In this document: in pieces, positions 23,205-64,000 of the stretch | How the letters are laid out: each line of letters starts with the position of its first letter | Position numbering within the stretch: position 1 is the stretch's first letter | NCBI RefSeq assembly: GCF_055900595.2 | Contig: NZ_CM148325.1 | Strand: one strand, 5' to 3' | DNA: 64,000 nt | The notes under the pieces: generated by a model | What the model was told of the DNA's origin: nothing | What the model saw: only the letters and a program-made list of their open reading frames with translations | Database searches by the model: none | Translations under genes and position numbers: made by a program

Positions 23205-23320
23205 TTAAAAACGATATCCTGCTGAGAACATAAACACCCACGGATCAAGACGTACGCTATCGTGTTGCTGCGCACCACCCAGCTTATAATTTGCGGTGGT
23301 GTCAATATCCATGTACCAGA
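23205..23320 (-). pseudogene. ompW: ompW 3' fragment (last ~38 codons); the gene is interrupted by prophage integration
   Basis: Minus-strand translation ...VWYMDIDTTANYKLGGAQQHDSVRLDPWVFMFSAGYRF-stop matches the recalled OmpW C-terminus; similarity stops at about 23320, beyond which the sequence is AT-rich phage DNA. Confidence 0.8.
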
Positions 23321-23671
23321 CTGGCAGGTTTTAAAAAATCAAATAAGATATTGTATCTGAAAGAAAAAACAGGATTTTGAGATGCTTTTTTATACCGTTT
23401 TTCAGCGTTTTTAACTGCCTGATTTTATTGAAATCTTTTTTAGTTTTGCAGAAAGGATTTTTTGATCGATTGCTTTAATTTTATACATTCCTGATAACGG
23501 AAATTTTTTACCCGTTGACAGTTTTTATCCTCCGGGGCTATATTTCCAACGCGTCAGCAAAATCTGGCGTCGGGATTGGAACCCCGGATGTTTACGGAGC
23601 GATATGAGACGCGCCCGCGTCTTTTTTCATATCGTTTGCACAGTCACATTCGCGATTTATGGCGGGCTGTG

Positions 23672-23697
23672 TGGGGGAGCCGAAAGGCTCGCCGGTT
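23672..23697 (+). repeat. 26-bp direct repeat copy 1 (TGGGGGAGCCGAAAGGCTCGCCGGTT)
   Basis: Exact 26-bp match to 24412..24437; contains a GAGCC-GAAA-GGCTC tetraloop hairpin. Confidence 0.7.
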
Positions 23698-23791
23698 TCC
23701 GTACCCGGTAGTTCCAACCCCGCACAGTTCGCCACCATGATGATTGGAACCTGAAGGTGGCGATAATTTTCAAATGTACGGAGTTATCGTT

Positions 23792-24352
23792 ATGCCCACT
23801 CAAATTTCTGTCGACACTCTTCCTGCAATCACCCACAACCAGGTCCCCGTTATTACAACTGAACTTCTGGCGCAGTTATACGGAACAAAAATCAAAAACA
23901 TTTCTGATAACTTTCTGAACAACACGACGCGATTCGTGGTAGGAAAGCATTACTTTAAAATTGAAAAAAACGAATTACGCGAGTTTAAGAACAGACCCGA
24001 AACAATCGGGTTAGTTGGTAAAAATGCCCGCTCCCTTATCCTCTGGACAGAACGTGGCGCAGCCCGCCATGCCAAAATGCTCGAAACCGATCAGGCATGG
24101 GAAGTGTTCGAAAAACTGGAAGACTGTTATTTCAGCCAAAAACAACCACCAGCAACACAAAACTCACCCACCCCAAATGATGGATGCGCATTACTGATCC
24201 ACTTTGATAAACACGGTCAGGTAGAGTTCACAGAAAAAGTCCCCGCCGATGCGATGGTATGCACTCTGGAACGGTTTAAATTTTATCTGGAGCAACACGG
24301 CTGGCTCGTTGCCCGTAAAGAACAACTGGTGGAAAGGCTGATGCAGCTTTAG
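23792..24352 (+). CDS. ORF6N-domain phage regulatory protein (antirepressor-like)
   Basis: ORF track 23744..24352; start set at MPTQISVDTLPAI preceded by GGAG; N-terminal motif PVITTELLAQLYGTKIKNISDNFLNNTTRFVVGKHYFKI resembles the ORF6N/Rha-like DNA-binding domain. Confidence 0.6.
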   Translation: MPTQISVDTLPAITHNQVPVITTELLAQLYGTKIKNISDNFLNNTTRFVVGKHYFKIEKNELREFKNRPETIGLVGKNARSLILWTERGAARHAKMLETDQAWEVFEKLEDCYFSQKQPPATQNSPTPNDGCALLIHFDKHGQVEFTEKVPADAMVCTLERFKFYLEQHGWLVARKEQLVERLMQL

Positions 24353-24411
24353 CAGATATAACAAGTGTTTTTTCTCGTATGCACGCGCACATATGAATTA
24401 TTGTGGGGCGC

Positions 24412-24458
24412 ATGGGGGAGCCGAAAGGCTCGCCGGTTCAACTCCCGCCAGCTCCACC
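24412..24458 (+). repeat. 26-bp direct repeat copy 2 fused to a tmRNA (ssrA) 3'-end-like sequence GGTTCAACTCCCGCCAGCTCCACCA
   Basis: Exact repeat of 23672..23697, then a 25-nt stretch matching my recollection of the E. coli ssrA 3' terminus (T-arm, acceptor 3' strand, CCA). Confidence 0.55.
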
Positions 24459-24730
24459 ATTTTTGACAGGACTGCAACCGGACATCGACAATAAAAACAG
24501 ATAATTACGGACACTGACCAGACAACAAACAGACCTGAACAAGACAAAAATATACACGTGAAATGCACGTGCACTTTATAAAAACCCCAGATTTCACAGT
24601 CTGGGGTTTTTCTGTTTGTAAATAATGGTAACAAAAACACATCACCTTTTGGCGTTCCGTTCCTCTTGACACTGTTTATCCATACAGTTAAAAATAACAC
24701 TGTATACAAACACAGTGTAGAGGGATTTTT

Positions 24731-24979
24731 ATGCGTATTGAAATCTGTATCGCTAAAGAAAAATTCAGTAAAATGCCAAAAGGCTCTGTACCTGCTCTAC
24801 AACAGGAAATGTCTAGCCGTATCAGAAAACGATATGACGATGTGGAGGTTATAGTAAAATCCGCCAGTAATGACGGACTGACCATTTTAAGAGCCGTAGA
24901 TAAAGAAAACGCTCAGAAGTTCATACAGGAAACGCTGCAGGAAGTCTGGGAAACTGCTGATGACTGGTTTTTTCACTAA
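24731..24979 (+). CDS. DinI-family protein
   Basis: 82-aa [15 protein letters not shown]...[17 protein letters not shown]; the C-terminal ETWExADDWF motif is typical of DinI. Confidence 0.75.
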
Positions 24980-25362
24980 TCAGGACGTCAAATAAATAAC
25001 AACTGTAATTATTCTCTCCAAATTAACAATCTCTGTATACATACTCAGGCGTGTTCACGCATACAACACGCCTTTCTGATATTTAATTGTTTACAGAAAT
25101 ATTGCCGAATAAAAATATAAACCATAGTCTTAAAAAAATAATAATTCCACTATAGCTATCCCAGAACAACCAGTACAAATAATAAAAGACATATCACAGC
25201 AACACTCCACACTGACAGCGCAAAAATAAATGCCGCCTTTGTTATCTTCATATACAAGCAACCTGTCCTGATAATCACCAACTCATGTTTTATTCTTAAC
25301 CATTCGTCACAAATACAACAAAAAATAACAGCAGCAGCACCGATATCACAATATAAGATACA

Positions 25363-62285: not shown

Positions 62286-62491
62286 TTATTAATCCTCAAA
62301 ACTTTATGCCCGGGTGCAAAAGCACGCGTTTTGTCTTTGCTTATTCGCCAGCCATCCTTACGCGCCTCTTTTGCACAGCCAGTCCATGACGTACCGATAT
62401 ATTCACCGAAGTCTGGCGTTTGATATTTACCATTTGTACACTGGCGACAATCACAATAGAGATGCATGGTGTAACTTGCGGCAATAGCCAT
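62282..62491 (-). CDS. Hypothetical Cys-rich small protein, 69 aa
   Basis: ORF track; CDCRQC...C motif; coupled to flanking ORFs. Confidence 0.4.
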   Translation of the reverse strand: MAIAASYTMHLYCDCRQCTNGKYQTPDFGEYIGTSWTGCAKEARKDGWRISKDKTRAFAPGHKVLRINK

Positions 62492-62492
62492 A

Positions 62493-62852
62493 TCAGTCTC
62501 CTTTGATGCCAGTGTTTACAACCTGACAAGCCTCTTTGAGCACCCAGTCAACAGCGTCTTGCCATGCTCCGGTTTCGACTGGCGGATTCTCACGCTTAAC
62601 CTGTTCATAGAAGCGCACTGCTTTAATCAATCCTTCTGGTGTCAGTGGCGCAGGCGGTGCAGTGAATAACGCCTGAATTTCATAGTTCGGCCTGTCGTTG
62701 CAATCCTCTTTTGTCGGTACATATTTCCAGTCACCAACCCACATCTTCTCCTGAAAGTCCGTAACGCCTTTTTTCACGTAGCGATATCGCCATGCAACTG
62801 GTTTTGCCTGCCCTGCCGTTTCATGCCCTTCCTGATAATTAATCTCGCTCAT
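62493..62852 (-). CDS. Hypothetical nin-region protein, 119 aa
   Basis: ORF track. Confidence 0.45.
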   Translation of the reverse strand: MSEINYQEGHETAGQAKPVAWRYRYVKKGVTDFQEKMWVGDWKYVPTKEDCNDRPNYEIQALFTAPPAPLTPEGLIKAVRFYEQVKRENPPVETGAWQDAVDWVLKEACQVVNTGIKGD

Positions 62853-63025
62853 TCATCACCCCACTCATCACAATATGCTTCGACCGGATTTTTTCCTGCT
62901 TCATAATCATCACGCCATGCTTCAGCATCAGCAGCACTGCCACCACGTAACTCTGCATAGTCCATTAACAGTTCATGCCATTCTTCAAAACTGACGTTGT
63001 ATTTAGTTGAACCAAAATCAGCCAT
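62849..63025 (-). CDS. Hypothetical small acidic protein, 58 aa
   Basis: Manual translation MADFGSTKYNVSFEEWHELLMDYAELRGGSAADAEAWRDDYEAGKNPVEAYCDEWGDE; stop overlaps the downstream start. Confidence 0.35.
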   Translation of the reverse strand: MADFGSTKYNVSFEEWHELLMDYAELRGGSAADAEAWRDDYEAGKNPVEAYCDEWGDE

Positions 63026-63200
63026 TTTGCTCTTCCTCTTCGTCTTTTATTTCGTGATATGAGTAATTGCAGTAGTTAAAGAAAATTTCTTTTGCTTCGT
63101 CATGAATTTCATCAGGTGTTGCGTCATCGTCCACTTCGAATACATCCTCAAAATCTCCACCAGCTATTCCAGTTTCAATAATTATTTTGAACTTTCGCAT
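63018..63200 (-). CDS. Hypothetical small acidic protein, 60 aa
   Basis: ORF track; highly acidic. Confidence 0.35.
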   Translation of the reverse strand: MRKFKIIIETGIAGGDFEDVFEVDDDATPDEIHDEAKEIFFNYCNYSYHEIKDEEEEQNG

Positions 63201-63293
63201 TTCACTACCGCCCTTTCGGGTGGCCTCCTGCTGTTCTGAAGGTGCAGAAATCCCTCCGGTTAAGGATTAAATTTTTAACAGTGCTAAATTTAA

Positions 63294-63650
63294 TTATTCA
63301 GTTCTGGATTTTGTCACCCTGCGTATCCGCGCTTTCGCGTTACGCTCAATCTGAATTAGCTTTTCTATATTTTTTCGCCTTTCCCGTTCCTCCTGGCGCA
63401 AGAGCCTTACATCATCTGCCAGTCTGGTTTCTCTTTTCGCCACAGAGAGCATCCAGTCAAATGGCTCCACAACTGCACCGCAGATTTTACAGCGGACCTG
63501 ACGCTCTTTTTCGTCAACGCGGACAGAGGCGTGATGACAATATGGTCTTTCCGATGGCTCATAAAGAAAATTAACCTGATTACGTGGGTCATCCTCTTTT
63601 ACCGGAAATAAAACAATATTACTTAACTCATCTTCTGGTTTTATTTCCAT
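63294..63650 (-). CDS. Hypothetical protein with CxxC zinc-finger-like motif, 118 aa
   Basis: ORF track; CHH...CKIC motif and basic C-terminal tail. Confidence 0.45.
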   Translation of the reverse strand: MEIKPEDELSNIVLFPVKEDDPRNQVNFLYEPSERPYCHHASVRVDEKERQVRCKICGAVVEPFDWMLSVAKRETRLADDVRLLRQEERERRKNIEKLIQIERNAKARIRRVTKSRTE

Positions 63651-63703
63651 GCTCCTCTCCTTTGATGCGAATGCCAGCGATAATTGAAGCCTGATAGCTA
63701 ATT

Positions 63704-64000
63704 TTACTCACAGCCCCCCTGATAATTTCCCTGATAAAACGCCAGCACGCGCTGCATAACTTCGCTCTTCCTGCACTCGCAACAGATTATGTTCTGACGC
63801 CTGTCGTAGCGGCGTATTTCTCCGTCTGGTAATGACCAGATAAGGTCAGGATCAACCACAACCGGTTTTTTCACCTTTTCCCTTGATAGTTTTTTGCGGG
63901 CGTTTTGCCAGTCTTTACGCGCCTGCTCAGACGGGAATAATCCGTAGCCTGAATTGTATACATCACCACTGGCAACCAGCTCTCTGGCAAGAACGCTCAG
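63704..64000 (-). CDS. Hypothetical nin-region protein, 3' part (gene continues beyond the window end)
   Basis: Open minus-strand frame ending ...QGGCE-stop at about 63704 and running to the window edge. Confidence 0.3.
   Translation of the reverse strand: MSVLARELVASGDVYNSGYGLFPSEQARKDWQNARKKLSREKVKKPVVVDPDLIWSLPDGEIRRYDRRQNIICCECRKSEVMQRVLAFYQGNYQGGCE

Follow-up and report, generated by a model that had tools for sequence, protein, structure and literature searches.

The 64,000-nucleotide stretch analysed here (contig NZ_CM148325.1 of RefSeq assembly GCF_055900595.2; hereafter the window) runs from host chromosome into a lambdoid prophage, and the two meet inside the 3' end of ompW, an outer-membrane protein gene. 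The host part (1-23146) is ordinary Escherichia chromosome, with the trp leader recognised by Rfam, trpD, trpCF, trpB, trpA, yciG, yciF and yciE. Next to yciE, on the minus strand, lies the displaced native 3' end of ompW (23205-23321; 38 codons and a stop, translation VWYMDIDTTANYKLGGAQQHDSVRLDPWVFMFSAGYRF). Homology to ompW stops at 23323, which puts the junction 38 codons before the stop codon, and the guanine-plus-cytosine (GC) content is 0.30 in the 229 bases past the junction as against 0.46 in the ompW fragment. Phage DNA then continues to the end of the window, with the late genes placed on the minus strand in lambda order, from the tail fibres back to Nu1, followed by the lysis genes and Q.

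The ompW fragment was compared with the uninterrupted ompW of Z0117EC0005, the strain closest to the host lineage, a type of comparison proposed in a first-pass annotation of this DNA, and 116 of the 117 bases agree, including synonymous variants specific to this lineage. The fragment also runs unbroken into the native terminator, the ompW-yciE spacer and yciE, collinear with K-12. Since it matches the allele of the lineage and continues into the native terminator and yciE, it is neither a chance open reading frame (ORF), which these two findings rule out, nor a phage-borne look-alike. The latter would be a secondary attachment sequence carried by the phage, with the true host junction elsewhere; it has a precedent in prophages that carry a 121-bp sequence 81% identical to ompW (attB-in-PP_3; PMC8112680). 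However, such an origin is hard to reconcile with a 99% match to the native ompW allele found in the closest host lineage, including its particular synonymous variants, with the unbroken run into yciE, or with the native loop NYKLGGAQQHDS that is encoded here in place of a phage-type loop. The attachment core described below is also present only once in the 64-kb window, and we regard a phage-borne fragment as extremely improbable. By these alignments, 23205-23321 is the host arm of attR. The first-pass annotation had let the last 38 ompW codons break off near 23320 into AT-rich phage DNA and had put the integration inside the ompW coding region; both statements agree with our results, and the junction falls at the published site of the prophage PPompW, which supports the reading that the ompW 3' end is occupied by a lambdoid prophage whose attR lies in the window.

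Alignments of attB, attL and attR define a 31-bp segment of near-identity (23293-23323, minus strand; CAGT[G/C]TGGTACATGGATAT[C/T]GA[C/T]ACCACCGC), and judging from these sequences the crossover must fall within it. In a scan of GTDB species representatives this core was also found in the native ompW of Citrobacter, Klebsiella and Raoultella, and only these matched. The phage arm of attR (23324-23550) is AT-rich, with a GC content of 0.30, and carries one exact copy (23443-23451) and one copy with a single mismatch (23397-23405) of the 9-mer CTGCAAAAC, and these are its only two occurrences in the whole window. At the attL of E. coli GF4, a strain with the same phage, three copies stand in a row between ompW and int. 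The 9-mer is thus repeated in both phage arms, as expected of arm-type integrase sites, and we presume that its copies represent such sites.

The integrase side of the prophage was examined in related genomes. The same phage is present in GF4, with 99.7% identity over 23100-27900 and 99.83% identity over 51301-64000, the latter as one collinear block up to the last base of the window, and E. coli DG341-1 carries a related one. In both strains the far prophage end holds an excisionase gene, the gene of a 376-residue integrase and a convergent 212-codon ompW annotated as intact, followed by yciC. In the alignment, attL has host sequence 5' of the 31-bp core and a phage-derived end 3' of it. The phage-derived ompW end has 74-78% DNA identity to the native end, and past the new stop codon it supplies a hairpin and a T-run. 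Full-length ompW at the integrase side was also found in an O157:H7 strain, an O91:H21 strain and strain R4. In every genome examined, the ompW beside this integrase is a frame of 212 or 217 codons that is annotated as normal.

These arrangements suggest how the integration may have proceeded. The target of a lambda-family tyrosine integrase would be a short conserved sequence that lies 38 codons upstream of the ompW stop codon, with attP as its partner in the recombination; around attP the phage would carry a diverged version of the ompW 3' end. At attL, the host would contribute the first 174 ompW codons, which would continue in frame through the core into about 28 phage codons and a phage terminator, and the product would be a full-length OmpW of 212 residues whose last ~28 codons are predicted to encode SYKFNGTPVKDAVRLDPWVFMFSAGYRF. 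The original 3' end would be left as a dead fragment beside yciE, as seen in the window, and excision of the prophage would restore the native end of the gene. We consider it highly probable that the window holds attR and about 40.7 kb of a PPompW-type lambdoid prophage, with ompW rebuilt at attL and not inactivated; judging from the relatives that carry the same phage, ompW has almost certainly been rebuilt.

If the prophage had instead truncated and inactivated ompW, the host would have lost OmpW and hence the receptor of colicin S4. The window itself shows the 3' fragment of the gene only, and Bobay et al. (2013) describe ompW as disrupted by phage integration at this site (PMC3603311), a statement that conflicts with the reading frames examined in this analysis. 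Inactivation is contradicted by the full-length frames of 212 or 217 codons found wherever the integrase stands beside ompW in the examined genomes, and by the phage-supplied end, in which the amino acids of the last beta strand (VRLDPWVFMFSAGYRF) are all retained; we therefore hold a loss of OmpW to be very unlikely. It may also be asked whether the prophage was rearranged after integration, by inversion or by recombination with another lambdoid prophage, leaving its integrase end and the ompW 5' part no longer contiguous. Prophages at ompW and ydfJ have been reported to recombine and invert with one another, by which attL could have been displaced (PMC8112680), and the two copies compared here are already altered, the window copy by an insertion sequence (IS) and the GF4 copy by a large deletion. 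However, the window is collinear with GF4 to the last base, and GF4 runs 9 kb further to int and ompW, so we give a rearrangement of this kind little credence. The description of a disrupted ompW and the rearrangements between prophages both weigh against a rebuilt ompW, as does the position of the attL of the present genome, which lies beyond the window and leaves the rebuilt gene to be deduced from relatives. We infer that this attL resembles that of GF4 and that the rebuilt OmpW works.

A lone ompW 3' fragment beside yciE should hence not be taken as a loss of ompW, as the rebuilt gene would be found about 50 kb away, adjoining the integrase. The total length of the prophage, including the insertion sequence, is probably about 50 kb, because extrapolation from GF4 gives about 9 kb past position 64000.

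The same arrangement is widespread. A probe that joins the terminal part of int to the 3' half of ompW was searched in 5,426 complete RefSeq E. coli genomes, and int was found to adjoin ompW in 1,714 of them. Of the rows sampled, 13 span the whole query; each of them lists ompW as a normal gene, and three were retrieved and confirmed. The arrangement is already known and this is a very common E. coli integration site: a near-identical prophage is already present in public genomes, and prophages use few E. coli sites as heavily as ompW, which was listed among the most occupied prophage hotspots by Bobay et al. (2013; PMC3603311). The name PPompW and the 121-bp attL and attR come from the work of Nakamura et al. 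(2021) on Shiga toxin-producing E. coli (STEC) O145:H28, whose methods include polymerase chain reaction on excised circular forms to define attP (PMC8112680). Among the 5,426 genomes, the host backbone of the window (1-23146) reaches at most 98.8% identity in its eight best matches and about 96.7% in the next-best genomes listed, and the host therefore belongs to a somewhat divergent lineage. As the prophage is 99.8% identical to that of GF4 whereas the backbone reaches only 98.8%, the phage appears to have spread recently across host lineages.

The phage-supplied ompW end is no silent replacement, since the last hairpin of OmpW acquires a different tip. The 12 residues that precede the unchanged last strand differ from the native ones, and at least 8 residues are rewritten at the β7-β8 hairpin tip, with a variant that depends on the prophage lineage. 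At least three such variants occur: the native tip of K-12 (NYKLGGAQQHDS) is replaced by SYKFNGTPVKDA in GF4 and DG341-1, by KYKSGVTTVKDS in the O157:H7 strain, the O145 PPompW phage record and strain R4, and by KYKSDGRKLAKGSYSDN, which is 5 residues longer, in the O91:H21 strain. Only 2 to 4 of the tip positions differ from E. coli in the native ompW of Citrobacter, Klebsiella and Raoultella, and the phage-type tips diverge from the native tip more than these do. In the swapped loop the proportions of nonsynonymous (pN = 0.29-0.49) and synonymous (pS = 0.5-1.3) differences are both near saturation, and the flanking strand codons give pN = 0 and pS = 0.3-0.5. This pattern fits relaxed constraint of the loop as well as selection, with the strands under strong constraint. 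In R4 (locus L026, NZ_CP107182.1, 1516-2154) the host-derived 5' part of ompW is just 86% identical to K-12 DNA, which suggests that this allele may have been imported.

An AlphaFold model of the chimeric OmpW, built from an alignment of only 8 sequences and of low overall confidence, with a mean predicted local distance difference test (pLDDT) score of 56 and used solely to place the turn, puts it at residues 189-190, where the mean pLDDT of 10-residue blocks is 75-80. Outside the altered tip, the chimeric protein exactly matches solved OmpW chains. The C-terminus of eight-stranded barrels such as OmpW is periplasmic; the β7-β8 turn therefore faces outward, and the altered tip would be surface-exposed. 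OmpW is an eight-stranded barrel and the receptor of colicin S4 (PMC2649078), and a T4-like Serratia phage is reported to be OmpW-dependent (PMC10132071); a functional effect of the tip change is therefore possible. We tentatively suggest, as a doubtful possibility, that integration in ompW may subject a surface receptor to reversible lysogenic conversion by means of the rewritten hairpin tip. If this were true, the change could alter the sensitivity to colicin S4, OmpW-dependent phages or antibodies, and this would concern roughly one in three sequenced E. coli genomes. Literature searches, with most subscription journals outside their scope, returned no report of a prophage-driven change of an OmpW loop.

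The structural genes of the prophage are of mixed affinity. The tail genes J, I, K, L, M, H, T, G, V, U, Z and FII (31658-43090, minus strand) were identified by tblastn against lambda, with 91-99% amino-acid identity for U, V, G, T, H, M, L, K and FII, 80% for I, 63% for Z and, over its first 836 residues, 94% for J. A 174-bp unit is repeated in the diverged C-terminal part of J (32181-32506; 1.9 tandem copies, 92% match). The head genes FI, E, D, C/Nu3, B and W (43041-48215, minus strand; portal gene assigned to phrog_21) are of the phage 21 type, with about 95% DNA identity to phage 21 and its relatives, and their products have 52-68% amino-acid identity to those of lambda. The large terminase gene A (phrog_15, minus strand) is found in two pieces, encoding the C-terminal (48199-48546) and N-terminal (51246-52834) parts, and Nu1, for the small terminase subunit, is located at 52806-53315 (minus strand; phrog_57 and phrog_1790). 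All genes of the series Nu1-A-W-B-C-D-E-FI-FII-Z-U-V-G-T-H-M-L-K-I-J are therefore present and in order, but A is interrupted. The first-pass annotation, which described a complete late region in lambda order, was right about the order and about the near-identity of L, M, K and H to lambda; the region is incomplete at A, and its head genes are phage-21-like instead of lambda-like.

The interruption of A is due to an IS66-family element of 2,699 bp (48547-51245, plus strand) with tnpA, tnpB and tnpC and an 8-bp target duplication (TTCATACG); TnpA, TnpB and the transposase all score above the curated cut-offs of NCBIfam. When the element and one copy of the duplication (48547-51253) are removed in silico, a frame of 642 codons is restored for A that is 100% identical to the GF4 protein, which indicates that the insertion is recent and the sole lesion in A. 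Because the element splits the large terminase gene, the present prophage copy is predicted to be one that cannot package DNA on its own. The terminase is intact in the relatives found by exact-protein look-up, and two genomes have a similar IS-terminase junction in an arrangement that differs from that of the window. In the GF4 copy (locus L003, 5337-6868) the tail-fibre genes through the portal gene are lost, and a truncated DUF4376 gene abuts a truncated portal gene. With a large deletion in GF4 and an IS insertion in the window, the two copies thus bear different inactivating lesions.

Between cos and the lysis genes, a protein of 126 residues (54307-54687) is encoded that has a counterpart in phage 21; relatives annotate it with a TonB C-terminal domain, while PHROGs places it in an 'Rz-like spanin' family. 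The lysis genes, all on the minus strand, were assigned with PHROGs (phrog_13, phrog_7 and, for the holin, phrog_1350), and comprise Rz with embedded Rz1 (55266-55748), an endolysin with a Gly/Ala-rich N-terminal hydrophobic segment (55730-56263) and a class II holin of 90 residues with two hydrophobic helices (56921-57193). These had been taken for a lysis system with a pinholin and a signal-arrest-release (SAR) endolysin. The endolysin has 34% identity to the SAR endolysin of phage 21 (E = 2e-22), and the alignment pairs the Glu, Asp and Thr of the EG...D...WT motif; together with the N-terminus of the protein this makes the label of SAR endolysin reasonable. The holin matches S21 with 38% identity over 53 residues (E = 3e-5), a weak match, and its Pfam matches are marginal (P21 holin, E = 0.0012; HP1 holin, E = 0.00017); the pinholin part of the claim is not established, as these similarities only weakly suggest it.

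Downstream of Q, ARAGORN and Rfam detect a tRNA-Lys(UUU) and a tRNA with CAU anticodon, for Met or Ile2 (57609-57762, minus strand), the second of which is annotated as tRNA-Ile in GF4. The adjoining block (57973-61223, minus strand; phrog_304, phrog_34, phrog_96 and phrog_251) comprises the Q antiterminator, rusA, a DUF968/HNH gene similar to ydfU, rem, hok and sok, the last with an Rfam match at 112 bits. Small early-region genes, such as those with DUF551 and DUF7167, follow on the minus strand (61348-64000); they are collinear with GF4, take their names from relatives, and continue to the end of the window, which falls inside a DUF977 gene.

At the opposite end of the prophage, next to attR, Rfam detects the small RNA isrK (23551-23627, plus strand) and the C4 antisense RNA (23655-23739, plus strand), at 72.7 and 78.9 bits, respectively. 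They are followed by an ORF6N antirepressor gene (23792-24352, plus strand; phrog_2379 anti-repressor, E = 2.6e-93). The location of isrK and C4 directly upstream of an ORF6N antirepressor is the arrangement of P1 immI and of Salmonella Gifsy-1, and 23551-24352 is an antirepressor module of the P1/Gifsy type at the very end of the prophage. Profile matches and the annotation of relatives further indicate a DinI-like gene (24731-24979, plus strand) and a small sigma-like helix-turn-helix protein (25363-25818, minus strand). A YadA-type trimeric autotransporter of 546 residues is encoded at 25880-27520 (minus strand), in a gene with six perfect to near-perfect repeats of 99 bp (33 residues). The number of repeats varies among relatives, and the gene measures 1,443 bp in GF4 and 1,569 bp in DG341-1. 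A search of solved structures at E <= 0.001 returned two chains only, the YadA anchor (2lme) and a chimeric construct with a putative adhesin/invasin. As there was no Eib entry among these matches and Pfam finds the YadA_anchor domain alone, an identity with Eib was dropped.

The tail-fibre region beyond the autotransporter (minus strand throughout) was assigned with PHROGs (phrog_1141, phrog_366 and phrog_425 across 27956-31398). It encodes a protein of a tail-fibre family (27956-28531), a side tail fibre containing collagen-like repeats (28546-30396) and, at the position of lom, a membrane protein (30736-31398). The collagen-like Gly-X-Y arrays of the side tail fibre gene consist of about 15 tandem copies with a 45-bp period and a second array of 3 copies.

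Two further observations concern the host part of the window. The enterobacterial small RNA STnc180 is found at 631-833 (Rfam, 203 bits). Between cobO and rluB there is an islet of low GC content (8622-9961; 0.36) with three minus-strand ORFs of 102, 118 and 215 residues, of which the 215-residue product is lipoprotein-like. The islet is absent in DG341-1, where the gap measures 40 bp, and its ORFs have no match in NCBIfam or PADLOC.

Among known elements, the prophage is most readily compared with PPompW of STEC O145:H28 (P08 of strain 112648; GenBank LC567822 and relatives), with which it shares the ompW site and the duplicated 3' segment; the phage records annotate this segment, the 121-bp repeat, as a duplication due to PPompW insertion. 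The integrase of GF4 has 97% amino-acid identity to that of the O145:H28 PPompW, 49% to that of phage 21 and 36% to lambda Int. OI-57/CP-933O of O157:H7 EDL933 is likewise integrated in yciD (ompW) (PMC9144400). The lambdoid order, the Q-rusA-DUF968-rem-hok block and the tRNA genes after Q are also common to PPompW and the window. In contrast, PPompW carries the type III effectors espO, nleG and espM, whereas the right end of the present prophage holds the antirepressor module, DinI and the YadA-type adhesin, and the terminase, portal and protease genes of PPompW are of the HK97 type while the structural genes here are of the lambda/21 type. Moreover, the phage arm of attR is only 85.6% identical to PPompW over 247 bases, the phage-supplied loop variant of OmpW differs from that of PPompW, and the 21-bp internal attB of the O145 PPompW is absent from the window with up to 3 mismatches allowed.

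The resemblance to the Qin prophage of K-12 is partial. The endolysin is 92% identical to rrrQ, and the ydfU-rem-hokD segment shows 85% DNA identity over 1.9 kb. However, Qin is without rusA at the equivalent position and has a different Q gene (ydfT), and the DNA comparison with Qin gave no match for Q, the holin or other parts. The first-pass suggestion that the Q-rusA-DUF968-hok block resembles Qin is therefore borne out for ydfU-rem-hokD and fails for Q and rusA. With lambda and phage 21 the prophage shares the gene order from Nu1 to J, but the C-terminal part of J, the collagen-like side tail fibre and everything beyond are unrelated to lambda.

As for the mode of integration, the closest parallels are phage 21 and e14 in icd, which also integrate in the 3' end of a coding gene and restore its frame with a substitute end; in phage 21 this substitute 3' end of icd is noted in the record annotation. 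Phage 21 likewise has arm-type repeats adjoining int, and integration in ompW appears to follow the design of phage 21 in icd. The two substitutes differ in fidelity: that of phage 21 is annotated as 99% identical to the last 53 residues of the host protein, whereas the ompW substitute alters at least 8 residues and in one lineage adds 5.

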